Numbered from the stretch's first letter, positions 724-27,427 are shown. The stretch is DNA of 64,000 bases from a bacterium (GCA_963662285.2 CAXXMV010000002.1:1568001-1632000); one strand, 5' to 3'. The notes: generated by a model not told the origin, from the sequence alone. A program made the numbers and translations.

Positions 724-2904
724 TCATCCTGTTTCCATTGGAATATTTAATTCCAGGTCTTCGTTGATGAAGAATTGTATTTCATGAATTTGATAATTAG
801 GAGCGGTGATTGTCATGGTGTGTTCACCCTCCTCTATGCTATCTATATAATAAAAACCACTGCTGTTGCTGGTGGTTTCCTTGTCTCCAATTTTCACTAC
901 GGCATTGGGAATCAGATTGTAATATACGGCGTCGAAGATAAACCCATACACTGTTGAGGTCGAATAATCCGGCGTGGGACTGGGAGTAGGCGTGGGCGTC
1001 GGCGGCGCGGGCAACAAGCGAATATTCATATTCTGATTCTTGGAGAAGAACCGGGTTAAGGTAAATTCATAATATCCCTCCGCCTGCGCCAGAATCGTAT
1101 ACACATCCGCATTAGGTAAAATGAGTTGATATTCCCCGTTCCATCCGCTGTGGGTAACCTCATCGCCTGCTGAGATTCTGGCGCCCTCAATCGCCTGACC
1201 GCCGATCAAACCCCGCACTTTGCCGGTAATATAGATTTCATCGCCGGTTAGAATTGGCGTGGTTGGTGTGATGGTCGGCGTGTAGGTTGGTACTGGAGTA
1301 TACCCGATTGGAGTAGGCGTCGGGTCGAATCCCTGTAAAAACTGAACTGGTCCCTGCGGTTCGAAGGGACCGTAAAAGATCGGGTGTCCCGTCCTGGTAA
1401 TACAATAAACTTTGAATTCATAGGTTCGATTAAACACTGGACCGTTATGGAAACGGGGCGCCAGCCGGGGCGTTGCATCTCTCCATTCCAGATACTCTTT
1501 GGCGCCGTCAGCCGTCCGGCCTAAATAGGTATACTGCCCGGACTGATTCTCTCGAACGTATACATGAACGTCGGAGATATCATTTGGATTAATTCCGGCT
1601 TGAGCGTAGTTCCATCGGATAACCAGGGCGCGGTCATTCATGCCGTCGTAGTCCATCCCGTTGCTAAGGTCGCTCATGGTGGATAGGTCGTCGGTTATGA
1701 TTACAGTCGATCCAGTTGGATAGGTCGGCGTAATGGTTGGCGTAGCGTTAGCACCGAGAGTGGGCGTACTGGTTGGAATCGGAGTTGGATCGTCGCCATG
1801 AAGAAATTCCACCGGACCGGAATTATTGTATGGTCCATAGAAAAACGGAAAACCGGATAGGGTTAAGAAAAACACTTTGAACTGGTATTCCTGATTGAAT
1901 GAAGGACCGCTCTTGTAGGGATTGGCAATCCGGGGTGCGTCTTTCCTCCATTCGAAATATGTCGCTGAACCGCTCGCGGTCCGTCCCAGGTAATCATAAT
2001 TCTGATTGTCACGTTTCACCCAGACATGAATATCTAAAATCTCGTTGGGATCAACGGGAGCGTTTGCGAAATCCCAGCGGACGACCAAACACCGGTCGGT
2101 CGCGTCATCATAATCCCGCCCGTTGCTTAGATCGCTCATAGTGGTTAGATCGTCGGTTACGATAACCGTCTCGCCTGCGGCAAAGGTTGGCGTAGGCGTT
2201 GGAAGAACTGTGGTGGGAGACGGCGTATTGGTTGGCGTGGGCGTTTCTATTTCCGTGGGAGACGGCGTCACGTCGGGCAGTTCGCTGGGCGTGGGAGTTG
2301 GCGATAGCGTCGGGGTGGGCGATTCTTCCGGAGTGGGCGTTGGAGTAATTCCACTATGGGTAATGCGAACCGATCCGTTCTGCAAGGTCAGGGTGATATG
2401 CCCGTCATTGAGTTGGGTGACTTTTGTACCGGTGGTTTTGAAGGTTAGTGGAACCACTTGATCGGGCGCATCGTCTTTAACGCGCAACTTTAATTTCACC
2501 AGCGTTCCGCTGCCCTCAACCGCTATATATCCAGCGCCATTGATCAGGACTGCTTCCGATAAACGGTTGCCCTGGGTTTTTGAGGCATCGTTTTCATAAG
2601 TAGACCACCCCTTGCACAAGGTTCCGTTCACGGATGAACTGCCGGAGACGAATTCCAGCGGGTATTCCGGCGTGGTGTTGGGTAGATCGATGACAATGCT
2701 GAAACCCAATAATCCTTCTACATTTTCAACGCCTACCTGAACCCAAAATTCCTGGCCGGGGTGCGCGGTTTCTTCGCCGGGCAATGATAGCGTTGTTTGT
2801 CCATGCGCGTTAACGGGTGTTATCGCAAATGCGAGAAGGAGTATGATGGAAAGGAGAATCCATTGATTATTCAGGTTTCTACCTTTATTAAAATGCATGC
2901 TCAT
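724..2904 (-). CDS. Secreted protein: cohesin domain, Pro/Thr linkers, two copies of an unknown ~125-aa module, two carboxypeptidase-regulatory-like domains
   Basis: Signal peptide ending VNA; cohesin-like 'GQEFWVQVGVENVEGLLGFSIVID...GSGTLVKLKLRVKDDA'; TPTP linkers; duplicated 'TDDLxTMSDLSNGxDYD...YLGRT...EWR' module; 'ITGKVRGL/VYGFIFDA...GFYYI' domains. Start moved from 2931 to ATG 2904 (GAAAGGG upstream). Confidence 0.8.
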   Translation of the reverse strand: MSMHFNKGRNLNNQWILLSIILLLAFAITPVNAHGQTTLSLPGEETAHPGQEFWVQVGVENVEGLLGFSIVIDLPNTTPEYPLEFVSGSSSVNGTLCKGWSTYENDASKTQGNRLSEAVLINGAGYIAVEGSGTLVKLKLRVKDDAPDQVVPLTFKTTGTKVTQLNDGHITLTLQNGSVRITHSGITPTPTPEESPTPTLSPTPTPSELPDVTPSPTEIETPTPTNTPSPTTVLPTPTPTFAAGETVIVTDDLTTMSDLSNGRDYDDATDRCLVVRWDFANAPVDPNEILDIHVWVKRDNQNYDYLGRTASGSATYFEWRKDAPRIANPYKSGPSFNQEYQFKVFFLTLSGFPFFYGPYNNSGPVEFLHGDDPTPIPTSTPTLGANATPTITPTYPTGSTVIITDDLSTMSDLSNGMDYDGMNDRALVIRWNYAQAGINPNDISDVHVYVRENQSGQYTYLGRTADGAKEYLEWRDATPRLAPRFHNGPVFNRTYEFKVYCITRTGHPIFYGPFEPQGPVQFLQGFDPTPTPIGYTPVPTYTPTITPTTPILTGDEIYITGKVRGLIGGQAIEGARISAGDEVTHSGWNGEYQLILPNADVYTILAQAEGYYEFTLTRFFSKNQNMNIRLLPAPPTPTPTPSPTPDYSTSTVYGFIFDAVYYNLIPNAVVKIGDKETTSNSSGFYYIDSIEEGEHTMTITAPNYQIHEIQFFINEDLELNIPMETG

Positions 2905-2970
2905 GTCAACTACCCTTTCATACAGTTTCACTTGTTACTGATATAACACATATTTACAAGGATTGAAAGA

Positions 2971-3013
2971 AGCGGGAGTTTCATTGTTCAATATTTGTCA
3001 AGAAACTCCCGCT
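2971..3013 (-). terminator. Intergenic stem-loop after array gene 1
   Basis: AGCGGGAGTTTC ... GAAACTCCCGCT perfect 12-bp inverted repeat; only a weak U-tract on the coding strand. Confidence 0.55.
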
Positions 3014-3031: not shown

Positions 3032-4800
3032 CTATTCAGGGTAATTCAGGTTGATTCTGATTTGCCCGTCATTTACCAGCGTCTGTTGTTCGTCGACTTG
3101 AATTAGTAGCGGTTCTGTCAGGGCGCCTGATAAGTCGAACTTCACCGACATCAGGTTGCTTTGGCCTTGTTGCAATGGCGTTCCCAAGGCGCCTGACAGG
3201 ATTAGGCGGCCTGGTTCGGAGTCGTTGACGGCCAGCAACCCTGATGGAACCAGCCATCCGCTTGCCGCCCCGTTGAATTGCAGCTGTTCTGGATTGTACG
3301 ACAGGTCTATGCGTAAACCTTGTACATCATCCGCATTATCGATTTGGAAGGTTACAATCCATGAACTATCCTGCTGCTCGAAGAGCACATTCATGTTTCG
3401 GGCGGTTTGGCGTTTTGATACTTTGCCAGCTGGCAACGGCTCATCCGGCCCCCATTGATCGTGATCTGTATCAGCAGGGAACCAATCAATCAGCAACGCG
3501 TATTTTTGCAGAACCAGCGAGGCGTCCAGCGTTCCCGCTACATCATCGTCGTTCACATCAGCTGCTATCGGGAAATTGAGCCAAGGCTGCATAGGATCAG
3601 GATAGTATTCAGGATAATCGAGCACCGGATAGCCAGGGAAACTGTCTATCAATTCAGCGTTGAATTGCAGCAATAGCGATGCATCGACTGAGCCTGCCTG
3701 AGCGTTGTCGTTGAGGTCGCCCCACATGAAGGGGATGTAAATCTTTATCACAAACTGTTGAGCAGGCGAGTGGTTGATTCCACCGTTGGCGATGCCGCCG
3801 CTGTCGAATAGAGTTGCGGTTGCATCAAACACGCCGTGTGTATTCACATTTGGCGTGAAGCGCAAGGTTCCACCTGCATCGATGGTTGGCGATGCCGAGA
3901 ACAATTCGGGGTTGCTGGTTTCAACGTCGAACCAAACTATCTGAGATGATTCGTTCGCCGGACCAGTGCTGATCGCAGTCGCCCATGCGGGAAATGTATG
4001 CTGCCCGCCAGTGGCGTTGAGAACCACCGCAGTAGCGCCCGCGATGAAGGATGGAGCGTCGTTGACCGGATCGGCGGTAATGCTGAAAATGTAAGGCGTC
4101 GAACTATCGATGCCGCCGTTGGCGGTTCCACCTGAGTCATGCAGAACGGCGGTGGCGTTGCAAATACCGTACTCGTCGCTAGCCAATGTATAACGTAACG
4201 CTCCGGACGCATCGATGGTTGGTTGAACAAAGAACAGCGATGCATTATCAATATCCAACGTGAAATTCAAATCCTGCCAAGATTCATAGGCTATGCCTGG
4301 GCTGATGTCAGTAGCCCAGCCAATGATTTCATGGGCGCCGGAATCTTCCAGCACAACTTCGTTGGCGCCGCCCGTGAAGGTCGGGATATGGTTTGGACCG
4401 AGAACTGTGGCGCTCCAGATTTCTGTACTGTAAGCGATAGCGTCTTCGTTCAAACTTGTTAGCGGAGTGAAACTAACAGATATAGGCGTAAAGTCGGCTA
4501 ACGTCTCGTTGACATGCAGTTGGAATTTCATCAACGACCCTGCACCGCTCGCTAAAGCATCCGTAGCGCTGGCGCAGGTGAAGATGGCTATTTCGGGGCT
4601 GGAACTGTTTACAACCAAAGGCCCCCAACCGTTTTCTGTGGAGGTTCCAACCTTGGTCGCTGAACCTGGAACGTAAGTTACTTTGCTTGGGTCGAGGTCT
4701 AGGGCTATGCGGTAGCCGACGACGCCTGATGCGTCGGAGATGTTGATGGCTATTTCTACGTCTTGATTTCGGTTGACGTTGATTTCGCTCGGTTCGAGGG
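3032..4800 (-). repeat. Copy 1 of ~1.77-kb constant region shared by the array genes
   Basis: Near-identical DNA at ~6266-8035, ~10100-11870, ~14673-16445, ~19434-21200; diverged copy at ~23990-25755. Confidence 0.92.
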
Positions 4801-6064
4801 AGAGGATGGGAACAGATGCAGGTTCAGCAAAAAACATCCGCCCATACGCACCACTACCAGAACCATCTTGAGGATAACTCGTATAGGCAAAGGCTATATT
4901 TCCATTATCATTCATATCAATATCATAAGGTGCATGCGTATCATAATTTGTATATGCATTTACATAAAATTCGTCTCCTATAGGATTTCCAATTGGATCG
5001 AAACGTTGAGCATACATACCCCTTGCATATCCATCTTGATCAGTACTCTGCCAACCAATAATGAAATTACCATAATTATCTATAGCAATGCAGGGAGTTG
5101 ATTGATCATTTGTTGTATAGGTATTGACCAGAATTTCTGATCCAAGAGTATTACCATTTGAATCAAATCGTTGAGCCTTCACATCATAATCGGATAAAGA
5201 ATTATCTTGCCAAGTAATCACATAACTCCCACTATCATTCATTGCAATACGTGGACCACTTTGATGTCCAGTGGTTGTAGAATTGATTAGAGTTTCGGAA
5301 CCAACCTCATTACCATTTGAATCATATCGTTGAGAATATACACCATAACCTGATCCATCTTGCCCATCACTCTGCCAAACGGTAATAAAATTACCCGAGG
5401 AATTCATCGCGATGCCTGAGGACATTTGATAACCCGTAGTGTATGTGTTGACTTGAAATTCAGTGCCAACTTTGTTTCCATTACTGTCAAACCGTTGCGC
5501 ATACACACCACGGTCTGATCCATCTTGCCCGTTGCTATCCCATATAATAATGAAATCACCCGAAGAATTCATGGCGATATCTCTGGGAAATTGATTATCC
5601 GAAATGTATGTGTTGACTTGAAATTCAGCACCTATTTTGTTTCCATTACTGTCAAACCGTTGTGCGTATACTCCCTCCCCTGAACCATCTTGTCCATCAC
5701 TTACCCAAGTAATAACAAAATCACCAGTAGTTTTATTGATTGCAATTTGAGCACTCCTTTGATAACTGCTAGAGTAAGTATTTACTTTTATTTCACCCGT
5801 TAATGGTGTTGCATCGCTATCAAAAATTCTTGTATAGACACTATCCTGTGAACCATCTTGCCAATCACTTTGCCATGTATAAACAACTCGCCCATTGTTA
5901 TCCATCGCACAAGACGGATAACCTTGATGACTTGAAATATACGTATTTAGCTGAAATTCGTTTCCGACTGTTATCAGTTCAGAAGCACACACATTCATTG
6001 AACTAACAACAATTCCAATAACTGCCACAATATTCATGTACTTTGATAGAATTAGCCGTTTCAT
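3032..6064 (-). CDS. Array gene 1: secreted 7-repeat (EFQVNTY-type) putative beta-propeller + constant cohesin-Ig-Ig-dockerin-cohesin body
   Basis: Seven ~55-aa repeats (EFQLNTY/EIKVNTY/EFQVNTY... with QDGSxxGVYAQRFD); shared C-terminal body with 'GDLNDNAQAGSVDASLLLQ' and 'ADVNDDDVAGTLDASLVLQ'. Start ATG 6064 follows GGAGGAG. Confidence 0.88.
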   Translation of the reverse strand: MKRLILSKYMNIVAVIGIVVSSMNVCASELITVGNEFQLNTYISSHQGYPSCAMDNNGRVVYTWQSDWQDGSQDSVYTRIFDSDATPLTGEIKVNTYSSSYQRSAQIAINKTTGDFVITWVSDGQDGSGEGVYAQRFDSNGNKIGAEFQVNTYISDNQFPRDIAMNSSGDFIIIWDSNGQDGSDRGVYAQRFDSNGNKVGTEFQVNTYTTGYQMSSGIAMNSSGNFITVWQSDGQDGSGYGVYSQRYDSNGNEVGSETLINSTTTGHQSGPRIAMNDSGSYVITWQDNSLSDYDVKAQRFDSNGNTLGSEILVNTYTTNDQSTPCIAIDNYGNFIIGWQSTDQDGYARGMYAQRFDPIGNPIGDEFYVNAYTNYDTHAPYDIDMNDNGNIAFAYTSYPQDGSGSGAYGRMFFAEPASVPILSLEPSEINVNRNQDVEIAINISDASGVVGYRIALDLDPSKVTYVPGSATKVGTSTENGWGPLVVNSSSPEIAIFTCASATDALASGAGSLMKFQLHVNETLADFTPISVSFTPLTSLNEDAIAYSTEIWSATVLGPNHIPTFTGGANEVVLEDSGAHEIIGWATDISPGIAYESWQDLNFTLDIDNASLFFVQPTIDASGALRYTLASDEYGICNATAVLHDSGGTANGGIDSSTPYIFSITADPVNDAPSFIAGATAVVLNATGGQHTFPAWATAISTGPANESSQIVWFDVETSNPELFSASPTIDAGGTLRFTPNVNTHGVFDATATLFDSGGIANGGINHSPAQQFVIKIYIPFMWGDLNDNAQAGSVDASLLLQFNAELIDSFPGYPVLDYPEYYPDPMQPWLNFPIAADVNDDDVAGTLDASLVLQKYALLIDWFPADTDHDQWGPDEPLPAGKVSKRQTARNMNVLFEQQDSSWIVTFQIDNADDVQGLRIDLSYNPEQLQFNGAASGWLVPSGLLAVNDSEPGRLILSGALGTPLQQGQSNLMSVKFDLSGALTEPLLIQVDEQQTLVNDGQIRINLNYPE

Positions 6065-6208
6065 AACATCTCCTCCTTTTGTTTTTTGGATAATCAAAAT
6101 TATCCTATTATCACTATGGTTTATATGCGGATAAAACATATGTTTTTTTGATCATTATCAATTTTTGACTTATGAAACTTGATCTTCTCTTCCTTGGATA
6201 AGAAATTA

Positions 6209-6243: not shown

Positions 6244-6265
6244 CGTTATTCAATTGATTTCAATA

Positions 6266-8035
6266 CTATTCAGGGTAATTCAGGTTGATTCTGATTTGCC
6301 CGTCATTTACCAACGTCTGTTCTTCATCGACTTGAATTAGTAGCGGTTCTGTCTGGGCGCCTGCTAAGTCGAACTTCACTGACATCAGGTTGCTTTGGCC
6401 TTGTTGCAATGGCGTTCCCAAGGCGCCTGAAAGAATCAAGCGGCCTGGCTCTGAATCGTTGACGGCTAGCAACCCTGATGGAACCAGCCATCCGCTTGCC
6501 GCCCCGTTGAATTGCAGCTGTTCTGGATTGTACGACAGGTCTATGCGTAAACCTTGTACATCATCCGCATTATCGATTTGGAAGGTTACAATCCATGAAC
6601 TATCCTGCTGCTCGAAGAGCACATTCATGTTTCGGGCGGTTTGGCGTTTTGATACTTTGCCCGCAGGCAGCGGCTCATCCGGCCCCCATTGATCACAATT
6701 CAAATCGGCGGGGAAGCAATCAATCAGCAACGCGTATTTTTGCAGAACCAGCGATGCGTCCAGCGTTCCCGCCACATCATCGTCGTTCACATCGGCTGCT
6801 ATCGGGAAATTAAGCCAAGGCTGCATAGGATCGGGATAGTACTCTGGATAATCGAGCACCGGATAGCCAGGGAAACTGTCTATCAATTCAGCGTTGAATT
6901 GCAGCAGCAGCGATGCATCGACCGAGCCGGCTTGAGCGTTATCATTGAGGTCGCCCCACATGAAGGGGATGTATATCTTTATCACAAACTGTTGAGCAGG
7001 CGAGTGGTTGATTCCACCGTTGGCGATGCCGCCGCTGTCGAATAGAGTTGCGGTTGCATCAAACACGCCGTGAGTATTCAGGTTTGGCGTAAAGCGCAAG
7101 GTTCCACCTGCATCGATGGTTGGCGATGCCGAGAACAATTCGGGGTTGCTGGTTTCGACGTAGAAGAACCAAACGCTCTGATCGGATTCGTTGGCCGGTC
7201 CAACGCTGATGGATGTCGCCCATCCTGGGAATGTATGCTGCCCGCCAGTTGCGTTGAGAACCACCGCAGTGGCGCCCGCGATGAAGGATGGAGCGTCGTT
7301 GACCGGATCGGCGGTAATGCTGAAAATGTAAGGCGTCGAACTATCGATGCCGCCGTTGGCGGTTCCACCTGAGTCATGCAGAACGGCGGTGGCGTTGCAA
7401 ATACCGTACTCGTCGCTAGCCAATGTATAACGTAACGCTCCGGACGCATCGATGGTTGGTTGAACAAAGAACAGCGATGCATTATCAATATCCAACGTGA
7501 AATTCAAATCCTGCCAAGATTCATAGGCTATACCTGGGCTGATGTCAGTAGCCCAGCCAATGATTTCATGGGCGCCGGAATCTTCCAAAACAACTTGGTT
7601 CGCTCCACCTATAAAATACGGCTGATGGTTTGGACCAAGCACGGTGGCGCTCCAGATTTCTGTACTGAAAGCGATGGCATCTTCGTTCAAACTTGTTAGC
7701 GGAGTGAAGCTGACAGATATAGGCGTGAAGTCGGCTAACGTCTCGTTGACATGCAGTTGGAATTTCATCAACGACCCTGCACCGCTCGCTAAAGCATCCG
7801 TAGCGCTGGCGCAGGTGAAGATGGCTATTTCGGGGCTGGAACTGTTTACAACCAAAGGCCCCCAACCGTTTTCTGTGGAGGTTCCAACCTTGGTCGCTGA
7901 ACCTGGAACGTAAGTTACTTTGCTTGGGTCGAGGTCTAGGGCTATGCGGTAGCCGACAATGTCTGAAGCATCGGAGATGTTGACGGTGATTTCTACTCCT
8001 TGATTTCGGTGGACGTTGAGGTCTGTGGGGTTGAA
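6266..8035 (-). repeat. Copy 2 of constant region
   Basis: Near-identical to 3032-4800. Confidence 0.9.
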
Positions 8036-10027
8036 GTCGATTGTTGGTAGTGGCTTATTATCGATTATGAAATTCCCAATCGATTCTGGCCCATCACCTA
8101 CCCAAAAAGAATTGATGACACTATTAGTTTCAGTATCAATTACTGAAACTGAATCATCATTGTTATTAGTCACATAAATACGGGATCCATTGTTGTTTAT
8201 CGATATCCCATGCGGAGCATCTCCAACAGGAATAGTTGTAATAACCATATTCGATAGAGTGTTTATAACCAAAACATTATCATCATCTCGATTTATAACA
8301 TATAATAAATTCTTTGTAGGATGCGCCACAAGACTAATTGGTGTATTACAAACGCTGATTGTATGCAAAGTGCTATAATTCATTGTATCGACAACTGCCA
8401 CAATACCTGCACTGTCACTAGCTATATAGAGACGCGAATCGTCAGCGGATGTTTCAAACGCCAATAATGAAAATGGTACAGTGAATGATGTTTTAATACT
8501 GTTGGTTATTGCATTGATTACATAAACTCGATTCGTATTTCTATCTCCAACATAAACATTCTCTCCTGCATAATCTGTACAGACGCCAATAGGGTATGAT
8601 CCAGCAGAGATTGTTGTTATTACTGAATTGTTACTTGTATCGACGACTAATACATAAGAAGGACTTTGAGTAACAATATAAAGCTGATTTCCGTTGGGGT
8701 TGACAGCCAAATGCAAGGGGATTCCAGATATAGAAATAGTATCAATAACAGTATTTGTTATGGTATCTATAACTGAAACATCACCACTATTTGCGTTAGA
8801 CACATAAACACGATTCATTTTGGGATTTGCAGCAACACACCTTGGAAATGTTCCGACTGGAATTGTTTGAATAACAGAATTGTCATCAAAATCAACGAGA
8901 GATACCTCATTTGAATTTGTCAATGGAATGTATCCAAGAATCTGTGGAATGATCGTTTCCTGAACAACAAATTCATATGCGCCAATATCGTATGCCGATC
9001 CTTGAGGACGCGACACTCCTCTCTGATCAACTGCAAGACCTGTTGGGGCATAATCAATAGCAGGACTTCCTGTCAATAGTGCATGAGTTTGAGTTGGTCC
9101 GCCATTATCTGCTAAAGAATCAAATAAAGGATCAATTCCTACCATGTTTCCATTAACACCATCAGGCACTCCTCCTGTGCCAACAATATTATACTGAGAA
9201 GTTGTAATAGAACCTTGGATATCCTTATTTGAATTTGTTGCTGAATTACCATAAACAATACTATTTATTAAACTATTGCCTGAACTACCCCATAATAGAA
9301 TTCCACCACCACCATACGCAGTTGCGGAATTTCCAGTGATAGTACAATTTGAAATAGAGACATTAGTGTTCCCGTCCACTCCACCCCCTTTTTCTGCTGA
9401 GTTTCCTGTAATAGTACAATTCGATAAATTGATAGATGAAGCAGAATACTGATCACCGAATACTCCACCACCATCTTTTGCTGTATTTCCAGAAATCAAG
9501 CAATTAAAGGCATTCAAGGTCCCGGAAACATATATCCCTCCACCCCAATCATTGGTCGTCCTACAATTAAGTATGGCGCAATTTTCTAATGTAAGTACGG
9601 AATTAACATAAATGCCAATACCCCCACCTTTTCCATAACCTCCATTACCATTTTGCATTGTCAAATTACGTATCGTAACAGTTGAATTTTGCGTTATTGT
9701 AAAAATACTGACGCTATCATTTCCGTCCAATGCTAAGGTATCTGCTCCAAGACCATCAATAGTTATTGCTTTGCCACTTATATACAATTGCGAATTCAAA
9801 TATATAATCTGACTGGATAATGAAGAATCAAAAACAATTGTATCACCACTAACTGAATCTGTGATTGCCTGCCTTAGTGATCCAGCACCACTGTCATTCG
9901 TATTAGTAACTGTTAGCGAGTACGAATTTTGCGTTAACAATACTACGCAACACATCACAGATAACAAAACAAATAATACCTTTTTTAATGCTAATCTTCC
10001 ATGTTCTGATACGTTATCTTTGTTCAT
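6266..10027 (-). CDS. Array gene 2: secreted beta-helix (choice-of-anchor Q-like) + YVTN beta-propeller + constant body
   Basis: 'VTNTNDSGAGSLRQAI', GGG-rich 'NCTITGNSA' repeats, 'LADNGGPTQTHALLTGSPAID...DQRG...DIGAYE'; YVTN repeats ('RVYVSN', 'RIYVTN', 'VSVIDT'); shared C-terminus. SD GGAGG. Confidence 0.9.
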   Translation of the reverse strand: MNKDNVSEHGRLALKKVLFVLLSVMCCVVLLTQNSYSLTVTNTNDSGAGSLRQAITDSVSGDTIVFDSSLSSQIIYLNSQLYISGKAITIDGLGADTLALDGNDSVSIFTITQNSTVTIRNLTMQNGNGGYGKGGGIGIYVNSVLTLENCAILNCRTTNDWGGGIYVSGTLNAFNCLISGNTAKDGGGVFGDQYSASSINLSNCTITGNSAEKGGGVDGNTNVSISNCTITGNSATAYGGGGILLWGSSGNSLINSIVYGNSATNSNKDIQGSITTSQYNIVGTGGVPDGVNGNMVGIDPLFDSLADNGGPTQTHALLTGSPAIDYAPTGLAVDQRGVSRPQGSAYDIGAYEFVVQETIIPQILGYIPLTNSNEVSLVDFDDNSVIQTIPVGTFPRCVAANPKMNRVYVSNANSGDVSVIDTITNTVIDTISISGIPLHLAVNPNGNQLYIVTQSPSYVLVVDTSNNSVITTISAGSYPIGVCTDYAGENVYVGDRNTNRVYVINAITNSIKTSFTVPFSLLAFETSADDSRLYIASDSAGIVAVVDTMNYSTLHTISVCNTPISLVAHPTKNLLYVINRDDDNVLVINTLSNMVITTIPVGDAPHGISINNNGSRIYVTNNNDDSVSVIDTETNSVINSFWVGDGPESIGNFIIDNKPLPTIDFNPTDLNVHRNQGVEITVNISDASDIVGYRIALDLDPSKVTYVPGSATKVGTSTENGWGPLVVNSSSPEIAIFTCASATDALASGAGSLMKFQLHVNETLADFTPISVSFTPLTSLNEDAIAFSTEIWSATVLGPNHQPYFIGGANQVVLEDSGAHEIIGWATDISPGIAYESWQDLNFTLDIDNASLFFVQPTIDASGALRYTLASDEYGICNATAVLHDSGGTANGGIDSSTPYIFSITADPVNDAPSFIAGATAVVLNATGGQHTFPGWATSISVGPANESDQSVWFFYVETSNPELFSASPTIDAGGTLRFTPNLNTHGVFDATATLFDSGGIANGGINHSPAQQFVIKIYIPFMWGDLNDNAQAGSVDASLLLQFNAELIDSFPGYPVLDYPEYYPDPMQPWLNFPIAADVNDDDVAGTLDASLVLQKYALLIDCFPADLNCDQWGPDEPLPAGKVSKRQTARNMNVLFEQQDSSWIVTFQIDNADDVQGLRIDLSYNPEQLQFNGAASGWLVPSGLLAVNDSEPGRLILSGALGTPLQQGQSNLMSVKFDLAGAQTEPLLIQVDEEQTLVNDGQIRINLNYPE

Positions 10028-19433: not shown

Positions 19434-21200
19434 CTATTCGGGGTAATTCAGGTTGATTCTGATTTGCCCATCGTTAACTTGCGTCTGTTGTTCGTTGACT
19501 TGAATTAGTAGCGGTTCTGTCTGGGCGCCTGCTAAGTCGAACTTCACTGACATCAGGTTGCTTTGGCCTTGTTGCAATGGCGTTCCCAAGGCGCCTGAAA
19601 GAATCAAGCGGCCTGGCTCTGAATCGTTGACGGCCAGCAACCCTGATGGAACCAGCCATCCGCTTGCCGCCCCGTTGAATTGCAGTTGTTCTGGATTGTA
19701 CGACAGGTCTACGCGTAAACCTTGTACATCATCCGCATTATCGATTTGGAAGGTTACAATCCATGAACTATCCTGTTGCTCGAAGAGCACATTCATGTTT
19801 CGGGCGGTTTGGCGTTTTGATACTTTGCCAGCTGGCAGCGGTTCATCCGGCCCCCATTGATCGTGATCGGTATCCGCCGGGAACCAATCAATCAGCAAGG
19901 CGTATTTTTGCAGAACCAGCGATGCGTCCAGCGTTCCCGCTACATCATCGTCGTTCACATCGGCTGCTATCGGGAAATTAAGCCAAGGCTGCAAAGGATC
20001 GGGATAGTATTCAGGATAATCTAGTACTGGATAGCCAGGGAAACTGTCTATTAATTCAGCGTTGAATTGCAGCAATAGCGATGCATCGACTGAGCCTGCT
20101 TGGGCGTTGTCATTGAGGTCGCCCCACATGAAGGGGATGTATATCTTTATCACAAACTGTTGAGCAGGTGAGTAGTTGATCCCGCCATTGGCGACGCCGC
20201 CGCTGTCGAATAGAGTTGCGGTTGCATCAAACACGCCGTGAGTATTCAGGTTTGGCGTGAAGCGCAAGGTTCCACCTGCATCGATGGTTGGCGATGCCGA
20301 GAACAATTCGGGATTACTGGTTTCAACGTCGAACCAAACTATCTGAGATGATTCGTTCGCCGGACCAGTGCTGATATCTGTCGCCCATGCGGGAAATGTA
20401 TGCTGCCCGCCAGTGGCGTTGAGAACCACCGCAGTAGCGCCCGCGATGAAGGATGGAGCGTCATTAACCGGATCGACTGTGATGCTGAATACAAACGGCG
20501 TCGAACTATCAATGCCGCCGTTAGTGGTTCCACCGGAGTCATGCAGCACGGCGGTGGCGTTGCAAATACCATACTCGTCGGAAGCCAGCGTATAACGCAG
20601 CGTTCCTGACGCATCGATGGTTGGTTGAACAAAGAACAGCGATGTATTATCAATATCCAATGTAAAATTCAAATCCTGCCAAGATTCATAGGCTATACCG
20701 GGGCTGATGTTCGTAGCCCAACCAATGATTTCATGAGCGCCGGAATCTTCCAAAACAACTTGGTTCGCTCCACCTATAAAATACGGCTGATGGTTTGGAC
20801 CAAGCACGGTGGCGCTCCAGATTTCTGTACTGAAAGCGATGGCATCTTCGTTGAGACTTGTTAGCGGAGTGAAGCTGACAGATATAGGCGTAAAGTCGGC
20901 TAACGTCTCGTTGACATGTAATTGGAATTTCATCAACGACCCAGGGCCGCTCGCTAAAGCCTCCGTAGCGCTGGCGCAGGTAAAAATGGCTATTTCAGGG
21001 CTGGCGCTATTAACAACCAAAGGCCCCCAACCGTTTTCTGTAGAGGTTCCCACCTTGGTCGCTGAACCTGGGACGTAGGTTACTTTGCTAGGATCAAGGT
21101 CTAGGGCTATGCGGTAGCCGACGATGTCTGAAGCATCGGAGATGTTAACGGTGATTTCTACGTCTTGATTTCGGTGGACGTTGAGGTTGGTGGGTTGGAG
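19434..21200 (-). repeat. Copy 5 of constant region
   Basis: Near-identical to the other copies. Confidence 0.9.
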
Positions 21201-22589
21201 AGTGAGTATGGGATCATCTGAAGATAAAGACATAATCCATGTATCATCATGCCATATTCCACTATCATCTGCGCCACCATATAGAATCAGCTGATCATTA
21301 GCAGAATCATAGACCATTGGTGCATAATATCTTTCAGGTCCATTGTCTGTCAGCAATTCCCATTGTGTTCCATCCCATACCCACGTTTCAGATTTCATAT
21401 CAAAGTTCGGATAATTACTTGCGCCTCCATAAAGTATTATCCTATCTTTGTGACTATCATATGCCATTGAGGGAGCATAAAGATCGCCAGGAGTTTCATC
21501 GGGTATCAAATTCCAATTATTTCCATCCCACAGCCAAGTACTTTCTACATAAGAAGAATCCATTCCACCATATAAAACAGTGTTATTATTAATCATATCA
21601 TAAGACATGCCGAAAACGCTTCGGGCGGATGGCCCCGTATTGGTTGGATTATACCACTGTGCGCCATCCCATTCCCACGTATCACCTAAACGTCCAACAG
21701 CATTGCCGCCACCGAAAAGAACAATCTTTTCTCTTACTGGATCGTGAGTAATTTGGAAAAAGGTACGAGGTGTTGGTTTAATTCCGACAGGGGTAAGATC
21801 GATCCAATTATAACCATTCCATATCCATAAATCATTCAAATAATTTTGATTTGGATAAGTCCCGCCGAACATAACTACTTGATTTCCTGTCGAATCGTAG
21901 GTCATCCCTTGACCATATCGTATATGTGGAATTGTAGATGGAAATAATTGTTCCCATTGAGCTCCATTCCATTGCCATGTGTTTTGCATTGCATTTCCAT
22001 TAGAAATGGAAGCCCCTCCAAAGAGAATAACTTCTTCGCTTGACTCATCATATGACATATTAGCCCAGCGAACACCTGGGCCAGTTGTTGATACTAACTG
22101 CCACACATAGTGGGGTTGAACTGTGATGCTGGCGCCGGTGATGGATGATGGAGTGATATCGTTGCCATTCGTATCCGCCAAATCTATTATTTCCAGAGTT
22201 ATATCCGTTTGGCCAATCGAGAGGGCGGTCAAATTGATCGTGGCCACGTTTATGATTCCTGTTGGAGCCGACATGCTTCCGGTGTTGACATCCAGAAAGA
22301 TCGCTTCACCTGGCGTGGTTAGATTGACCTGGTTGGGCGCGCCGAATTCGGTCGCCGTACCAGCGGTGATGGAATCGACTGTGAGAATGCTATCATCCCA
22401 TGTCAACCGCGCACGATAATTCCCCAGTGCGCTTGCGCCAACATCGAAGACTAGCGAAACATCACCAGATGCGCCATTCACCAGGCTTAGCGAGCCGGGA
22501 GTAAGGCTTCCGGTTGCGGCATAGGTTGTTATTGATAAACCAATAACCAACGAAAATATCAAGGAAAATATACGAGATGCTGTATTCAT
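19434..22589 (-). CDS. Array gene 5: secreted extra N-terminal cohesin + Kelch-repeat propeller + constant body
   Basis: N-terminal 'LGNYRARLTWDDSILTVDSITAG' cohesin-like domain; six 'MxYD...VxLFGG...DTWxWDG' Kelch-like repeats; shared C-terminus. Confidence 0.9.
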   Translation of the reverse strand: MNTASRIFSLIFSLVIGLSITTYAATGSLTPGSLSLVNGASGDVSLVFDVGASALGNYRARLTWDDSILTVDSITAGTATEFGAPNQVNLTTPGEAIFLDVNTGSMSAPTGIINVATINLTALSIGQTDITLEIIDLADTNGNDITPSSITGASITVQPHYVWQLVSTTGPGVRWANMSYDESSEEVILFGGASISNGNAMQNTWQWNGAQWEQLFPSTIPHIRYGQGMTYDSTGNQVVMFGGTYPNQNYLNDLWIWNGYNWIDLTPVGIKPTPRTFFQITHDPVREKIVLFGGGNAVGRLGDTWEWDGAQWYNPTNTGPSARSVFGMSYDMINNNTVLYGGMDSSYVESTWLWDGNNWNLIPDETPGDLYAPSMAYDSHKDRIILYGGASNYPNFDMKSETWVWDGTQWELLTDNGPERYYAPMVYDSANDQLILYGGADDSGIWHDDTWIMSLSSDDPILTLQPTNLNVHRNQDVEITVNISDASDIVGYRIALDLDPSKVTYVPGSATKVGTSTENGWGPLVVNSASPEIAIFTCASATEALASGPGSLMKFQLHVNETLADFTPISVSFTPLTSLNEDAIAFSTEIWSATVLGPNHQPYFIGGANQVVLEDSGAHEIIGWATNISPGIAYESWQDLNFTLDIDNTSLFFVQPTIDASGTLRYTLASDEYGICNATAVLHDSGGTTNGGIDSSTPFVFSITVDPVNDAPSFIAGATAVVLNATGGQHTFPAWATDISTGPANESSQIVWFDVETSNPELFSASPTIDAGGTLRFTPNLNTHGVFDATATLFDSGGVANGGINYSPAQQFVIKIYIPFMWGDLNDNAQAGSVDASLLLQFNAELIDSFPGYPVLDYPEYYPDPLQPWLNFPIAADVNDDDVAGTLDASLVLQKYALLIDWFPADTDHDQWGPDEPLPAGKVSKRQTARNMNVLFEQQDSSWIVTFQIDNADDVQGLRVDLSYNPEQLQFNGAASGWLVPSGLLAVNDSEPGRLILSGALGTPLQQGQSNLMSVKFDLAGAQTEPLLIQVNEQQTQVNDGQIRINLNYPE

Positions 22590-22648: not shown

Positions 22649-22813
22649 TTATGATAAAGTCGATCTTAATCCGACTAAATATTGTCCAAGGATCATGGCG
22701 TCGGTTGTGTCGATATCACCATCGCTGTCAATATCACCTCTTTCTTGCGCATGAGTGAGAGAGGGGATTAAGATAAGCGCCAGTAACATACATAAAACGA
22801 TACGTGTCTTCAT
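22649..22813 (-). CDS. 54-aa secreted peptide: signal peptide + single dockerin-like Ca-binding repeat (paralogue of the N-terminus of 22961-23875)
   Basis: Hand translation MKTRIVLCMLLALILIPSLTHA-QERGDIDSDGDIDTTDAMILGQYLVGLRSTLS*; SD GGAAGGAGGA 7 nt upstream. Could be a truncated duplicate. Confidence 0.7.
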   Translation of the reverse strand: MKTRIVLCMLLALILIPSLTHAQERGDIDSDGDIDTTDAMILGQYLVGLRSTLS

Positions 22814-22960: not shown

Positions 22961-23875
22961 TCAAGGATGCAACCTCAGGAGCCGGATTCCAAACTGGGTG
23001 TCGTGGTAGAGGGGCGTGATTTGGTAGCGATAAGCCGACTGTAAGGCTCCCCCGGCACCGGTGGAGGTCCAGCAGCCACCGCGAGCGACACGGTTCGAGC
23101 CTGATGAAGAACCTTGAGGATCAGTTTGATTACTAGACGTATAACTTTCATACCAGTTCTGGCACCACTCAAAAACATTGCCGCTCATGTCAAATAAGCC
23201 CCATGGATTGGGCAATTTTAGTCCTACTGGTTGAGTTCCATGTTCTTCTGCGTGGGGTAATGTCCAATTAGGAGAACGTGCATTATTCTGATACCAGCAG
23301 TATTGTTTTATGATGTCTTCCGCGTCGCTGTAACCCCAATAATGGATATCTGTAGTCCCCGCACGGCAGGCGTACTCCCATTCCGCCTCCGTTGGTAAGC
23401 GAAATGTACCTAACCCCAGTTGGTTTAGATTAGTAATAAACACTTGGCTATCATCCCAAGATACTGTTTCAACTGGGTTGTTCGGATTTCCGCTGAAACC
23501 GGAAGGATTACTGCCCATTACGGCTTGCCACTGCGCCTGGGTAACTTCGTATTTTCCTAAGTAAAAATTCTGCGTAAGAGTGACTTGATGCTGTGGCCCA
23601 TATGTTGGCGATCCCATAATGAACGTCCCCGCAGGAATCAGTGTCATTTCTAGCGCTATCGCTTCAACTGGGAGGTTTGGAATATTGATTACGATTGTCT
23701 CGAGAGCAGGAGCAGACAATGAATCTCGAAGCCCTACCAAATATTGTTCGAGTATCATGGCGTCGGTGGTGTCGATATCACCGTCTCCGTCAATATCTCC
23801 GTTGACTTGTGCCTGAGTGAGAGAGGGAATTAAGATAAGCGCCAGTAATATACATAAAACGATACGAATCTTCAT
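22961..23875 (-). CDS. Secreted dockerin-repeat + FGE-sulfatase (SUMF1) domain protein
   Basis: Signal peptide, 'GDIDGDGDIDTTDAMILEQYLVG', then 'MTLIPAGTFIMGS', 'RLPTEAEWEYACRAG', 'PNPWGLFDMSGNVFEWC', 'RGGCW...GIRL'. Start ATG 23875 after AGAGGA. Confidence 0.9.
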   Translation of the reverse strand: MKIRIVLCILLALILIPSLTQAQVNGDIDGDGDIDTTDAMILEQYLVGLRDSLSAPALETIVINIPNLPVEAIALEMTLIPAGTFIMGSPTYGPQHQVTLTQNFYLGKYEVTQAQWQAVMGSNPSGFSGNPNNPVETVSWDDSQVFITNLNQLGLGTFRLPTEAEWEYACRAGTTDIHYWGYSDAEDIIKQYCWYQNNARSPNWTLPHAEEHGTQPVGLKLPNPWGLFDMSGNVFEWCQNWYESYTSSNQTDPQGSSSGSNRVARGGCWTSTGAGGALQSAYRYQITPLYHDTQFGIRLLRLHP

Positions 23876-23931
23876 AATAAAATCCTCTTTAAATAAGTTT
23901 GCATGTCTAATGGACATAATTGTGTTTAACT

Positions 23932-26900
23932 TTAATGGATCATCCACTCACGAACATCCGTCGGGCTGCTTACATCAATAACTTGTATGCTAACAGATGT
24001 AAGTTGAATCTGACCATCATTAATTTGCGTCATTTCCTCATCGATGTTGATCAGAATTGATCCTACCGCATTTTCCTTTCTGTCGAATTTGACCAGGATC
24101 AAATCACTCGCGCCTTCACCCAGGGGCGCCATCAAGGCGCCTGCTATTATGAAGCGGCCTGGTTCGAGGTTATTGGTGACTATCATGCCGTTGGGGATCA
24201 GCCATTGGGTTTCTGGTTCGTCTACGTTTACTTGGGATGGATCGTAGCGCAGGACGAGACGGACTCCGCTGAGTTGATCTGCATTGTCAATTTTGAAATT
24301 GATAAAATATGAATCGCCGACCGTATCTACTGAAACGCTCATGGTTCTCGCAACGCTGCGCATACCGACTTTGCCCGCTGGCAGTGGAGCATCCGGCCCC
24401 CAATCGTCGTGATCGGTATCTGCGGGGAACCAATCAATCAACAGAGCGTATTGCTGCATGATCAGTGAGGCGTCTACGGTTCCGGCAATATCATCGTTAT
24501 TTACATCAGCTGCGGCGGGGAAATTGAGCCACGGGTGGATCGGGTCTGGATAGTATTCGGGATACTGCGCAACCGGATAACCGGGGAAAGCATCGACCAA
24601 TTCAGCGTCGAATTGCAGCAGCAGCGATGCATCAACCGAACCGGCCTGCGCGTTGTCATTCAAGTCGCCCCACATAAACGGGATGTAGATTTTGGTTACG
24701 TAATACTGAGGCGCGGAGGTTTCAACTCCTCCATTAGCGGTTCCGCCTCCGTCATTCATCACCACTGTTGCGCTGACGACGCCATGCGCTCCAACGTATG
24801 GCGTGAACTGTAATGCGCCTGACGCGTCTATGGTCGGCGTAGCGGAGAATATTTCGGCTTGTTCCGTCTGAACTATGAAAGAGGGAACCTGGCTAGATTC
24901 GTTGGGCGGCCCAACATTGATTCCCGTAATCCAGTTATACAATGTATGCTGACCGCCAGTGGCGTTGAGCACAACCGGCGTCGCTCCAACGATGAATGAA
25001 GGCTGGTCGTTGACCGGCAAAATTTCTATGGTGAAATGATATGGCGTTGACTGGTCGATTCCACCATAGGCCGTCCCGCCGTCGTCATGCAGAATGGCGG
25101 TAGCATCGCAGACGCCAAACGCATTTGCAGAGGGAGTATAATACAATGCGCCCGATATCGGATCGATCCAGGGAGATTCTGAGAATAAACCGGGATTGCT
25201 GTTATCGACGGTGAAATAGACCGATTGTCCTGATTCACTTGATGGCCCCGGCTCGATATTGGTAGCCCAATTAGCATGATTTATTTGCGGAGAATCTTCC
25301 AGCGCGATCTGATTAGGGCCGCCGTCAAAGGTTGGCGGTTGGTTTGGTCCGAGAACAGTTGCATTCCAGATATCCGCCTTAAAAGCCATGGCGTCTTCGT
25401 TGAGGCTGGTCAGGGGATTAAATGAAATAGTGATATTTTCGAGAGATGTAAAACTATCTTCTACATGAACCTGAAATTTCATAAGCGTTGCAGAATCACT
25501 GGAAATTGCTCCGCTGGCGCTGGCGCATGCAAAAATGGCAAGCGCCGGATTGGAGTCATTAACAAATATGGGGCCCCAGCCCGTTTCAGTTGATGTACCA
25601 ACCTTGGTCGCCGAACCGGGGACGTAAGTCACCTTGTTTGGATCAAGGTCCAGGGCGACGCGGTAGCCCACGGTAGAAGAGATATTGTTGGTTAACCGTA
25701 TGGTCAACTCTATGTTCTGATCAGGATTGACGGTAATGTCATCTGGTTCCAACGATAATTCGGGAATTGTAAAAGCATAGACCGAACCTGCATCAACGAC
25801 TCCATCAACATTATCAAGGCGGGCGCTAACCAGCGCGATGCCTCCAGAGAGTGTAACCACTCCAAACAAGTCGTTAGTTCCAAGATCATCGGGTTCCAGA
25901 ATAAGATTCGGGTAATGGATGCTTTGACTTTCCCAACCTGAATCCGGTTTTCTAAAAAGATACGCTATACCCTTTGAAGCATAGGTCGGGGCGCCGATAA
26001 GGACTGCATTATCATCAATTGAATTTGAATACCCGAACTTACCTCCAACAGCGCTGGACGGGTCTTTTTGTAATTGAGCGGTCTCCGTCATATCCGTCCA
26101 GCCGCTTGCGGGCTTCTCAAAAAGATATGTCGTGTTTTCATCAACAGAGGAATCACTGGCCGCTGATACGATGACAGTATTATTATCAATTGCAACATCG
26201 TAGCCGAACTGATCACCGGTTATGCCATCAGAAGCCGTTAAGGTCGCATCGGGGAACAAGGTTCCAGACCACCCGCCGCCTGGTTTAACAAATATATATG
26301 ACTTGCCATTGCCCGAATCATCAACTTGAGGAGAACCAATGACGACTGTATCTCCTGATATATCTACTTCCCAACCAAATTCATCTTTAGATTGCAGACC
26401 AATGACTGATAACGACGCATTCTCAGTAAGCGTTCCAGACCATCCCGTTATAGGTTTTTGGAATATATAAGCGCCCCCGGCGTCACTATTTTCCCCATAG
26501 GCGCCAATAACAACTGTGTCGCCAGACATCGATACTGATTTCCCAAAATCATCATTTCCGGGAAAAGTTGATAACAAGGTTGCATCTGCTATCAAGGTTC
26601 CAGACCAACCGCCCGAAGGTTTAGTAAAGATATATGCATATCCCTTGTAATTAACCGTATTCTTTTTATATGGAACTCCAACGCAAATCACATCACTGGA
26701 AATGGCGACGGCGCGTCCAAATTGGTCATTCGTAACAGGAGAGGGATTAATCAGGGTTGCGGATTTTATCCAATCGCCATTGCTCCGGGTATACACATAC
26801 GCTATTCCGGCATTTATTATGGTATTGAAATCCTTGAGAGGTTCACCGATTACCGCGATATCGCCTTCAATTGACAACTCATGACCGAACCGGGCGTTGG

Positions 26901-27042
26901 TCTCAGGAGGATCGGAAAGAATCTTTAAATCGGGCGCTATTATTTCCGCATCACAATATGCTGACAATGAAAAACTCAAAACCATTGTAAGGCATATAAT
27001 TGAAATTCTCATAAATTCATATTTTTCGATCTTTGAGATCAT
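23932..27042 (-). CDS. Array gene 6 (first transcribed): secreted 7x FG-GAP (integrin-alpha-like) propeller + diverged constant body + C-terminal TDVREWMIH tail
   Basis: Seven 'FGxxVxIxGDxxVIG' repeats; body homologous to, but more diverged than, copies 1-5; extra C-terminal extension. Start 27042 or 27060. Confidence 0.88.
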   Translation of the reverse strand: MISKIEKYEFMRISIICLTMVLSFSLSAYCDAEIIAPDLKILSDPPETNARFGHELSIEGDIAVIGEPLKDFNTIINAGIAYVYTRSNGDWIKSATLINPSPVTNDQFGRAVAISSDVICVGVPYKKNTVNYKGYAYIFTKPSGGWSGTLIADATLLSTFPGNDDFGKSVSMSGDTVVIGAYGENSDAGGAYIFQKPITGWSGTLTENASLSVIGLQSKDEFGWEVDISGDTVVIGSPQVDDSGNGKSYIFVKPGGGWSGTLFPDATLTASDGITGDQFGYDVAIDNNTVIVSAASDSSVDENTTYLFEKPASGWTDMTETAQLQKDPSSAVGGKFGYSNSIDDNAVLIGAPTYASKGIAYLFRKPDSGWESQSIHYPNLILEPDDLGTNDLFGVVTLSGGIALVSARLDNVDGVVDAGSVYAFTIPELSLEPDDITVNPDQNIELTIRLTNNISSTVGYRVALDLDPNKVTYVPGSATKVGTSTETGWGPIFVNDSNPALAIFACASASGAISSDSATLMKFQVHVEDSFTSLENITISFNPLTSLNEDAMAFKADIWNATVLGPNQPPTFDGGPNQIALEDSPQINHANWATNIEPGPSSESGQSVYFTVDNSNPGLFSESPWIDPISGALYYTPSANAFGVCDATAILHDDGGTAYGGIDQSTPYHFTIEILPVNDQPSFIVGATPVVLNATGGQHTLYNWITGINVGPPNESSQVPSFIVQTEQAEIFSATPTIDASGALQFTPYVGAHGVVSATVVMNDGGGTANGGVETSAPQYYVTKIYIPFMWGDLNDNAQAGSVDASLLLQFDAELVDAFPGYPVAQYPEYYPDPIHPWLNFPAAADVNNDDIAGTVDASLIMQQYALLIDWFPADTDHDDWGPDAPLPAGKVGMRSVARTMSVSVDTVGDSYFINFKIDNADQLSGVRLVLRYDPSQVNVDEPETQWLIPNGMIVTNNLEPGRFIIAGALMAPLGEGASDLILVKFDRKENAVGSILINIDEEMTQINDGQIQLTSVSIQVIDVSSPTDVREWMIH

Positions 27043-27427
27043 GATAATTATCCCTTTCATATTTCCGGTTCATGGCTGGATCGTAAACATGGATATCTAT
27101 AAAAAAATGATAAATTCGATGCTTACGAACCAATGCGATATTGTTCTGATTTTTTAATAATTATGGGTATAACAAAATAAGTAAAATAGGAAACAGAGGA
27201 GAATATTTGGTGAAAGCCAGCCCCATTTTATTAAGTAATGGTTAATACAGAGATCTAATTTAACGCCTAAACGTATCAATCGCAAAAATAATACTAGATT
27301 AATAGAACGAAATAGTGCAAAATTATACAAAAACGTAAAGAATACAGAATCACTAATAATATATATTTTATAATATAAGTAAATATTTTAGTCAAGAGCA
27401 ATTATATAAATTAACTATAATTTAATC

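Follow-up and report, generated by a model that had tools for sequence, protein, structure and literature searches.

What do cohesins and dockerins hold together in a gene cluster that encodes no recognisable glycoside hydrolase? The question is raised by a 64,000-nucleotide stretch of bacterial DNA (GCA_963662285.2, CAXXMV010000002.1:1568001–1632000; hereafter the window), in which six paralogous, secreted-type proteins carry different N-terminal heads on a common C-terminal body, or stalk, of cohesin, immunoglobulin (Ig)-like and dockerin modules. Cohesin–dockerin pairs are the textbook modular protein assembly and, to our knowledge, almost all experimental knowledge of them comes from cellulose-degrading Firmicutes. 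That cohesin and dockerin modules also occur outside cellulosomes is already established, and was reportedly described by Peer et al. in 2009. Here we propose that the cluster encodes a non-enzymatic display system, in which the stalk dockerins would plug into the cohesin of a neighbouring protein, g1, spare cohesins would take accessory proteins and gene conversion would keep the stalks compatible. We regard this wiring as moderately probable; our confidence that these are extracellular binding proteins made of genuine cohesin and dockerin modules is much higher.

All long open reading frames (ORFs) in 724–27060 lie on the minus strand, where eight minus-strand ORFs were listed. The cluster is laid out as follows (aa, amino acids; LRR, leucine-rich repeat):

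724..2931, minus strand: g1, candidate base or anchor protein, with a cohesin at 2332–2811
3032..6139, minus strand: g2, head of ~55-aa repeats, then body
6266..10027, minus strand: g3, right-handed β-helix, choice-of-anchor Q domain and YVTN repeats, then body at 6266–8092
10100..14593, minus strand: g4, ~13–14 repeats of ~40 aa and internalin-like LRR, then body at 10100–11926
14673..19241, minus strand: g5, FG-GAP_3/FG-GAP repeats (15 stretches), then body at 14673–16502
19434..22589, minus strand: g6, extra N-terminal cohesin-like module at 22080–22589, Kelch propeller, body at 19434–21257
22655..22813, minus strand: 53-aa ORF, signal peptide and single dockerin repeat
22961..23947, minus strand: g7, signal peptide, single dockerin repeat and FGE-sulfatase domain
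23932..27060, minus strand: g8, FG-GAP_2 head, divergent body at 23932–25806

Six of these proteins (g2, g3, g4, g5, g6 and g8) share a C-terminal body of ~594–610 aa behind unrelated N-terminal heads, and each starts with a hydrophobic segment resembling a signal peptide (judged by eye rather than by a predictor). The likely true start of g2 is the ATG at 6064, and its database copy (P0006) is 1010 aa long. g7 and g8 share 16 nt, at the start of the former and the end of the latter. A preliminary description of this DNA had pointed to six co-oriented secreted proteins on one constant body of this length. Their orientation, N-termini and shared body bear this out; the word 'constant' is not strictly right, as the bodies of g2–g6 are 88.5–92.3% identical in protein sequence and that of g8 is only 57–58% identical to them.

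The order of modules along the body is cohesin A, two Ig/cadherin-like domains, dockerin and cohesin B. In g2, and for cohesin A in its paralogues, they lie as follows:

4385..4816, minus strand: cohesin A of g2 (Pfam Cohesin, 35 bits; alignment)
7622–8053 (g3), 11456–11887 (g4), 16032–16463 (g5), 20787–21218 (g6) and 25336–25770 (g8), minus strand: cohesin A in the same register
3770..4384, minus strand: two Ig/cadherin-like domains of g2 (VNDAPSF-type boundary motif; weak Big_9 match)
3425..3769, minus strand: dockerin of g2 (two 12-residue EF-hand loops, a helix after each, with a Pro/Tyr-rich insert between them)
3035..3424, minus strand: C-terminal cohesin B of g2 (fold prediction)

This order agrees with the preliminary description and is borne out by Pfam and by predicted folds, although Pfam covers it in part: cohesin A passes its cut-off, whereas cohesin B stays under it and the body dockerin has no match. 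Cohesin A scores 35.0 bits in the isolated g2 body and 24.7 in the g8 body against Pfam Cohesin (PF00963, cut-off 24.1 bits). In whole-protein scans, Cohesin is listed in five of the six body proteins, in g8 at only 23.2 bits, which is under the cut-off; g3 is the protein without a listing at E ≤ 0.01. The Ig-like pair gives weak Big_9 matches (E 0.02–0.08), and the number of such domains in relatives ranges from none to about ten.

The dockerin of the window's bodies has no match to Pfam Dockerin_1 (PF00404, cut-off 22.9 bits) even at E ≤ 10. Its two helices (residues 27–37 and 80–90) each follow a 12-residue D-x-N-x-[DN]...D loop, and a conserved FPAD..WGPD extension, modelled with confidence, follows the second. 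It differs from canonical dockerins by this extension and by the insert of ~30 residues between the repeats. Two relatives in which this insert is shorter pass Dockerin_1 at the homologous position, P0159 with 26.8 bits over profile positions 2–55 of 57 and P0160 with 28.0 bits over positions 2–52. The AlphaFold2 (AF2) model of the dockerin has a predicted local distance difference test (pLDDT) score of 88.3 and a predicted template modelling (pTM) score of 0.81. In Foldseek, the listed ranks 1–36 are all dockerin chains, the best being 4uyp_B (TM 0.85, root mean square deviation 2.4 Å). A profile of the family's dockerins, compared with Protein Data Bank (PDB) sequences, gives dockerin modules in 8 of its 13 matches up to E 10, the best being 4uyp_B (E 0.0023), 8ajy_B and 4dh2_B. 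The second Ig-like domain abuts the first calcium loop of the dockerin with zero linker; chains of the X-dockerin type appear only at Foldseek ranks 32–35 (E > 1).

Cohesin B scores 17.9 bits with Pfam Cohesin. Its predicted fold has 77 PDB matches at E ≤ 0.001 in Foldseek, and listed ranks 1–32 are all cohesins. The best match is 5k39_A (E 1.6e-7), TM scores by target range from 0.42 to 0.68, type II cohesins come top and two carbohydrate-binding module (CBM) chains stand lower. The predicted folds thus match solved dockerins and cohesins, as the preliminary description had supposed, and support the assignment of the body modules as cohesins and a dockerin. Modules with other folds, which that description had named as a refutation, are by prediction not what the body contains.

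The heads are all different. Known propeller-type repeat families are found in four of them: g3 (where YVTN repeats accompany a β-helix and a choice-of-anchor Q domain), g5 (FG-GAP_3, 15 stretches), g6 (Kelch) and g8 (FG-GAP_2, 6 stretches). The earlier claim of six propeller heads stands as to their diversity; for g2 and g4, whose repeats match no family and gave no meaningful match in PDB sequence searches, a propeller fold is putative. A strict motif pattern finds 6 repeats in the g2 head, 7 being counted by eye, and 13 in the g4 head, where they are followed by internalin-type LRR. In the ESM Atlas, the g2 head scores 0.94 to unnamed clusters, and BNR-type clusters reach only ≤0.85. Matches of g4 to internalin and SlrP were set aside: they are far under the family cut-offs, and only the common LRR repeats lie behind them. 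An antisense ORF of 282 aa (13136–13984, plus strand), itself repetitive, runs opposite the repeat head of g4 and is most likely an opposite-strand by-product of these repeats rather than a gene. Taken as a set, repeat families and motifs support the reading of all heads as binding-type repeat modules.

How did one body come to carry six heads? A body repeat of such size and identity is, by sequence comparison, far beyond chance. At the DNA level, the bodies of g2–g6 are 88–92% identical to each other, and that of g8 is 60–62% identical to them. Among g2–g6, synonymous divergence (dS) is 0.2–0.4 and the ratio of nonsynonymous to synonymous divergence (dN/dS) is 0.14 for the whole body, which means that recent duplication is not all there is to the copies. 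Constraint is strongest on the dockerin (dN/dS 0.04, dN 0.012) and weakest on cohesin A (dN 0.086). Dockerins are 96–100% identical within g2–g6 and 83% identical to that of g8. Between g2 and g8, identity falls from 83% in the dockerin and linker to 60% in cohesin A, 60% in Ig-like domain 2, 54% in Ig-like domain 1 and 40% in cohesin B.

The body copies are mosaic in DNA, with tracts of 100% identity beside tracts of 83–87%, in a pattern that varies from pair to pair; such mosaic identity is, on sequence evidence, the mark of gene conversion between body copies. G+C content is 37–44% in the heads and 50–52% in the bodies. Because heads and bodies differ in G+C content and body identity is mosaic, these data suggest that gene conversion has homogenised the stalk and that the heads grafted onto it differ in origin. 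When a tree is built from the dockerin–cohesin B region, one clade (support 96/94) unites g2–g6 with P0017, a Kelch-headed protein of a separate record; the sister of this clade is P0154, followed by g8 with P0155. The tree has 19 rows; the window's database duplicates, truncated P0067, P0118, P0121 and P0159–P0161 were omitted, the last three because the motif pattern missed them. The array looks like a lineage-specific expansion with head replacement.

The extra N-terminal module of g6 is cohesin-like, with 22.7 bits against the Pfam cut-off of 24.1. It is 68% identical to the N terminus of P0089 (149 aa), and the same two proteins are 49% identical from the second Ig-like domain to cohesin B (the best body segment) and 40% from the Kelch head to the Ig-like domains. 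By these values, the module seems to be under tighter constraint than the stalk, or to have been exchanged more recently.

Relatives elsewhere carry the same body behind other heads, a point that the preliminary description had proposed to check in related genomes: NHL and cadherin (P0061), WD40 and Kelch (P0106), WD40 and NHL (P0112), FG-GAP (P0047), C-type lectin and β-helix without Ig spacers (P0156), LRR (P0159 and P0160) and FGE-sulfatase (P0067, P0068 and P0157). A word-indexed search, in which the 7999 candidates sharing most words were scored, found 18 family proteins, 6 of them the window's own, giving at least 12 from outside the window; an earlier word-indexed search had found at least 12 proteins, 6 of them the window's own. 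Among 156 collected proteins, 18 have the dockerin motif, and 6 of these are again the window's own. An alignment-based scan of 185,579 species genomes (40 pattern matches) gave at least 11 loci, of which L008–L011, being partial or weak, were left aside; a contig scan with the single g2 body gave 39 pattern matches, none of them confirmed. At E ≤ 0.001, the whole-body HMMER search returned 7285 proteins; most are giant proteins, and their matches fall on query residues ~130–360, the Ig-like pair. Since this pair dominates, the number is no measure of family size. The family looks small. Named sources are 'Candidatus Omnitrophota/Omnitrophica bacterium', with single cases labelled 'FCB group', 'Verrucomicrobia', 'Poribacteria' and 'Planctomycetes'. 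At one locus (L007), in a metagenome-assembled genome (MAG) labelled Omnitrophota, the stalk gene consists of two overlapping ORFs, 5803–8121 and 7940–10873, which separate an SBBP propeller head from the Ig–dockerin–cohesin part; the division may be genuine, or may stem from a frameshift or from an error of assembly.

The body of g8 ends in a short C-terminal tail, [PT]-[TS]-x-V-x-x-W-x-[ILV]-[HYQ] (23935–23970, reading W-M-I-H), which is lost in g2–g6. The tail is also present in 9 of the 12 non-window relatives with the dockerin motif; P0017 and P0154 are without it, and P0067 and P0118 are truncated. Within the window, it is also found on unrelated proteins that look secreted: it ends two CBM9 proteins and stands near the end of a LamG protein (ORFs 40884–41900, 47631–49103 and 59463–60968, all minus strand), and in related MAGs (L003 and L005) it is found on a CotH/β-helix protein and an S15 peptidase. 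None of the 54 proteins found in a search with g1 has the tail, and no hydrophobic stretch was seen beside it. The tail may be a lineage-specific sorting or anchoring signal.

Does the dockerin bind in its own chain? On this alternative, which we consider unlikely, the dockerin is locked onto cohesin B of the same protein as a rigid C-terminal foot, the modules are structural and attachment is made by other means, for example by the W-containing tail. In all family members seen, whether or not they have Ig spacers, the dockerin stands directly before cohesin B, and the AF2 model of the two together reaches pLDDT 88 and pTM 0.87 despite a pLDDT of 54 for their 10-residue linker (mean pLDDT of the five models, 61 to 88). 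A dockerin taken up by a cohesin of its own chain, which this model suggests as a possibility, is among the outcomes that the preliminary description had named as refuting its proposal. The tail at the end of g8, of nine relatives and of other secreted proteins in the window fits an attachment of this kind, yet g2–g6 have lost it and purifying selection on them persists. pTM is moreover an indirect measure of such binding, and a dedicated pair would be expected to change together, whereas between g2 and g8 cohesin B has kept 40% identity against 83% for the dockerin. Nor does an internal lock account for the dockerin repeat of g7 or for g1, the conserved neighbour that bears a cohesin.

That neighbour is the most likely partner in the display system proposed here. 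g1 had been described as a cohesin-only protein, which it is not: a signal peptide and an N-terminal cohesin are followed by PT-rich linkers, two copies of a ~130-aa repeat domain and two CarboxypepD_reg domains. Scanned alone, its cohesin scores 25.4 bits (cut-off 24.1; profile positions 3–139) and, in the whole protein, 20.3; profile comparison with cohesin A gives a probability of 98.8%. Seven related loci hold the dockerin–cohesin B end of a body gene, and in four of them (L001, L002, L004 and L007, from four different MAGs) a g1-like gene lies directly downstream of the body gene, the same arrangement as that of g1 after g2 in the window. The g1-type N-terminal cohesin aligns in L001, L002 and L007 (43–51% identity to g1); the L004 gene aligned to g1 over the repeats only. 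The g1-like proteins P0170 and P0175 also appear to be encoded on the same contigs (131038 and 289079 nt) as body genes. Related genomes have one stalk gene per g1-like gene and the window has six.

The ~130-aa repeat of g1 also occurs in proteins with FGE-sulfatase, NHL, cadherin-like, β-helix, FG-GAP_2, subtilase and matrixin parts, and is the very C-terminal module in many of them, in MAGs labelled Omnitrophota. Apart from a weak match to DUF7359 (E 6e-4), it belongs to no family, and its best ESM Atlas score is 0.85, with fn3 and Ig-like clusters as leads from which a fold is not assignable. This distribution would suit a lineage-specific address to the envelope or to a stalk.

What might the other cohesins hold? 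The preliminary description counted two dockerin-only proteins in the cluster, and neither proves to be one. g7 combines a dockerin repeat (Dockerin_1, 25.7 bits over profile positions 2–23 of 57, that is, one repeat) with an FGE-sulfatase domain (E 7e-45). The 53-aa ORF copies only the signal peptide and the dockerin repeat of g7 (22.6 bits against the Dockerin_1 cut-off of 22.9); this truncated duplicate of the g7 start may be what is left of a gene. We place g7 in the system because its FGE-sulfatase domain is a fused stalk head on the same body in other organisms. When all six reading frames of the window are searched with the family's own dockerin profile, nothing but the six bodies rises above chance; g7 and the 53-aa ORF reach E 0.2–0.3.

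A scaffold of the cellulosome type, in which the cohesins would take up hydrolases with dockerins from other parts of the genome and the heads would do no more than direct the complex to its substrate, is in our judgement very improbable. It would account for the surplus of cohesins; a GH2-like protein and CBM9 proteins are encoded elsewhere in the window, and a cellulosome-like system has been inferred in Cloacimonadota, likewise an uncultured phylum, according to part of one report (PMC8542988). On the other side, apart from g7 no Pfam dockerin was found on the window ORFs scanned, which include 19 proteins outside the cluster; the family dockerin profile adds none above chance to the six bodies; and no related locus has a dockerin-bearing hydrolase beside the body gene. 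Family scans of the nine cluster proteins found no glycoside hydrolase (GH) in 724–27060, as the preliminary description had noted, and no polysaccharide lyase, carbohydrate esterase or CBM family. The only catalytic-type family in these proteins is that of the FGE-sulfatase-like domains of g0, at the edge of the window, and g7. Because no carbohydrate-active enzyme, CBM or known anchor was found in it, the cluster is, as judged from its sequence, not a cellulosome.

For the display system, we envisage the following mechanism. Six paralogous secreted stalks would present swappable ligand-binding heads of propeller, β-helix and LRR types. The dockerin would be their common plug, because it is near-identical across the paralogues and under the strongest constraint; its most likely socket would be the N-terminal cohesin of g1, because g1-like genes adjoin body genes in four of the seven loci. 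The C-terminal repeats and CarboxypepD_reg domains of g1 would tether the whole complex to the cell envelope. Spare cohesins (cohesin A, the extra module of g6 and perhaps cohesin B) would take accessories with dockerin repeats, such as g7, and gene conversion would keep the stalks compatible while heads are exchanged. In this way a single chassis would show several recognition heads at the cell surface, with which the cell could adhere to particles, to matrix or to other cells. Every binding event, the surface location and the biological target are here what we infer.

Several observations weigh against this wiring. The predicted rigidity of the dockerin–cohesin B unit means that the binding face of the dockerin may be taken within its own chain. 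g1 has a single cohesin for six stalk proteins, and the cluster as a whole has 14 cohesins for 6 full dockerins. By Pfam and NCBIfam, g1 has no S-layer homology (SLH) domain, sortase signal (LPXTG), type IX secretion system (T9SS) domain or lipobox. At L006, the only ORF with a g1 repeat lies upstream and the contig ends downstream, and neither L003 nor L005 has a g1-like gene within 10 kb. The count of other dockerin proteins covers the 64 kb examined, out of the 1.85-Mb contig to which they belong. A complex prediction with three chains (the g1 cohesin, cohesin A, and dockerin with cohesin B) gave scores of 0.04 and 0.02 against a mark of 0.32; run without controls and in a design unlike that of the calibration, it is evidence neither way.

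The bodies without a g1-like neighbour (L003 and L005) would be easier to explain if the dockerin of one subunit docked onto cohesin A or B of another, so that the stalks assembled themselves into chains, reciprocal dimers or a branched mesh of mixed heads. One dockerin and two or three cohesins per chain leave a cohesin surplus for such a polymer, and near-identical dockerins would permit all paralogues to co-assemble. However, cohesin A is the most divergent module among g2–g6 (dN 0.086 against 0.012 for the dockerin), a poor fit with a conserved mutual interface, and most of the related genomes seen have a single body gene beside one g1-like gene, suggesting a two-partner system. The branched polymer of the preliminary description was drawn from domain counts, and the conserved synteny points instead to the g1 cohesin as the other partner; we think self-assembly decidedly unlikely. 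The display system and the three alternatives are not mutually exclusive. A wider version, which we put forward tentatively, is a plug-and-socket system of Omnitrophota-like bacteria, so far undescribed, in which a stalk kept uniform by gene conversion would be the universal adaptor for changeable heads, with dockerin-tagged accessories, a lineage-specific base and spare cohesins that can link the stalks into a multivalent mesh for attachment to host or prey. If so, and with the same reserve, the cohesin–dockerin pair might have been recruited as a general device for displaying adhesins, independent of polysaccharide degradation.

Which known systems come closest? In its working, the proposed stalk–g1 logic is nearest to the X-dockerin of Ruminococcus flavefaciens CttA bound to the ScaE cohesin, as described in parts of two reports (PMC4266597 and PMC7456326), and likewise to adaptor and anchoring scaffoldins. 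By the same accounts, CttA is a non-catalytic binder with an Ig-like module before its dockerin, and plugs into a single cohesin on a separate anchor; unlike the stalks, it is a cellulose binder, by way of CBM-like modules, and carries no cohesin itself. ScaE is there described as sortase-anchored, whereas g1 has no known anchor signal. The host of the present cluster, moreover, is not a Firmicute, and its heads are propellers, LRR and β-helices in six variants on one stalk. Adaptor and anchoring scaffoldins (5k39, 2b59 and 4uyp) also combine cohesins and a dockerin on one polypeptide; cohesin B is closest to type II cohesins and the dockerin to that of the ScaB adaptor (4uyp_B). They differ from the window's proteins, which are without enzymes, CBM or SLH and in which the dockerin has an internal position, each time with a cohesin after it.

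Non-cellulosomal modules are among the Foldseek matches of cohesin B, from Archaeoglobus fulgidus (2xdh) and Clostridium perfringens (2vo8, 2jh2 and 2o4e). Those of C. perfringens join glycoside hydrolase toxins, and the non-cellulosomal cases have no conserved cohesin–Ig–dockerin–cohesin cassette, head-swapped tandem array or syntenic base protein. Giant proteins of Omnitrophota, a related lineage by source labels, carry dockerin repeats on proposed extracellular adhesins for attachment to host or prey, according to parts of two sources (bioRxiv 10.1101/2023.11.21.568195 and PMC10066038). As these sources describe them, each is a single protein of >30,000 aa that is anchored in the membrane and has dockerin and thrombospondin repeats in large number, whereas the window's stalks are 1000–1500 aa long, have one dockerin between cohesins and form a paralogue array. 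For g7, the nearest parallel is the group-2 dockerins of R. flavefaciens, single-repeat modules that are functional and bind the ScaE cohesin according to part of one report (PMC12270676); in g7, unlike these, the repeat stands at the N terminus, before an FGE-sulfatase-like domain, and binding is putative. Full-text literature searches found no description of the cohesin–Ig–dockerin–cohesin cassette, of a g1-type partner or of a head-swapped array.

The surroundings of the array were described over the whole window. Remaining features at and within the cluster are:

3..719, minus strand: g0, FGE-sulfatase (SUMF1-like) domain with a lipoprotein-like N-terminus (Pfam FGE-sulfatase, E 6.8e-32)
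14624–14659, minus strand: 16-bp hairpin directly 3′ of the g5 stop codon
2950–3030, 6160–6260, 10040–10095, 14624–14659 and 19377–19412: hairpin sites after g2–g6

g0 runs off the left edge of the window, and the cluster may therefore extend beyond it; the six-frame search with the family dockerin profile found no dockerin motif in g0. Conserved GC-containing hairpins of 15–16 bp directly follow the stop codons of g2–g6, within the duplicated unit. Each may be a terminator or an mRNA-stabilising element, and the array may not form a single operon. Upstream of g8, on the opposite strand, a gene at 28993–31215 (plus strand) encodes an AAA_16 ATPase with TPR repeats and a TrmB-like helix–turn–helix, which may be a regulator of the array; between the two lies an ORF of 320 aa (27710–28672) with no family match. 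The region 36465–63623 encodes many secreted-looking binding proteins (CBM9, LamG, β-helix/NosD-like and VWA/BatA-like), as well as the GH2-like protein, a type II pseudopilin-like protein, a sugar ABC transporter and two histidine kinases, a gene content that fits an organism investing heavily in its surface. A prophage, defence-system or toxin reading was dropped, as nothing in the family scans of the window points there.

The cluster is a compact, testable case, in an uncultured lineage, of connectors that appear to mount binding heads rather than enzymes, and it offers six heads that occur naturally on a common stalk, a protein that may be their base and a dockerin with unusually strong constraint on it. 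If the proposed pairings are true, they would widen the known uses of the cohesin–dockerin system and would provide new orthogonal cohesin–dockerin pairs and a natural head-swapping scaffold for protein engineering. They would also offer a way into the means by which bacteria that are poorly known, and possibly dependent on hosts, attach to their targets.

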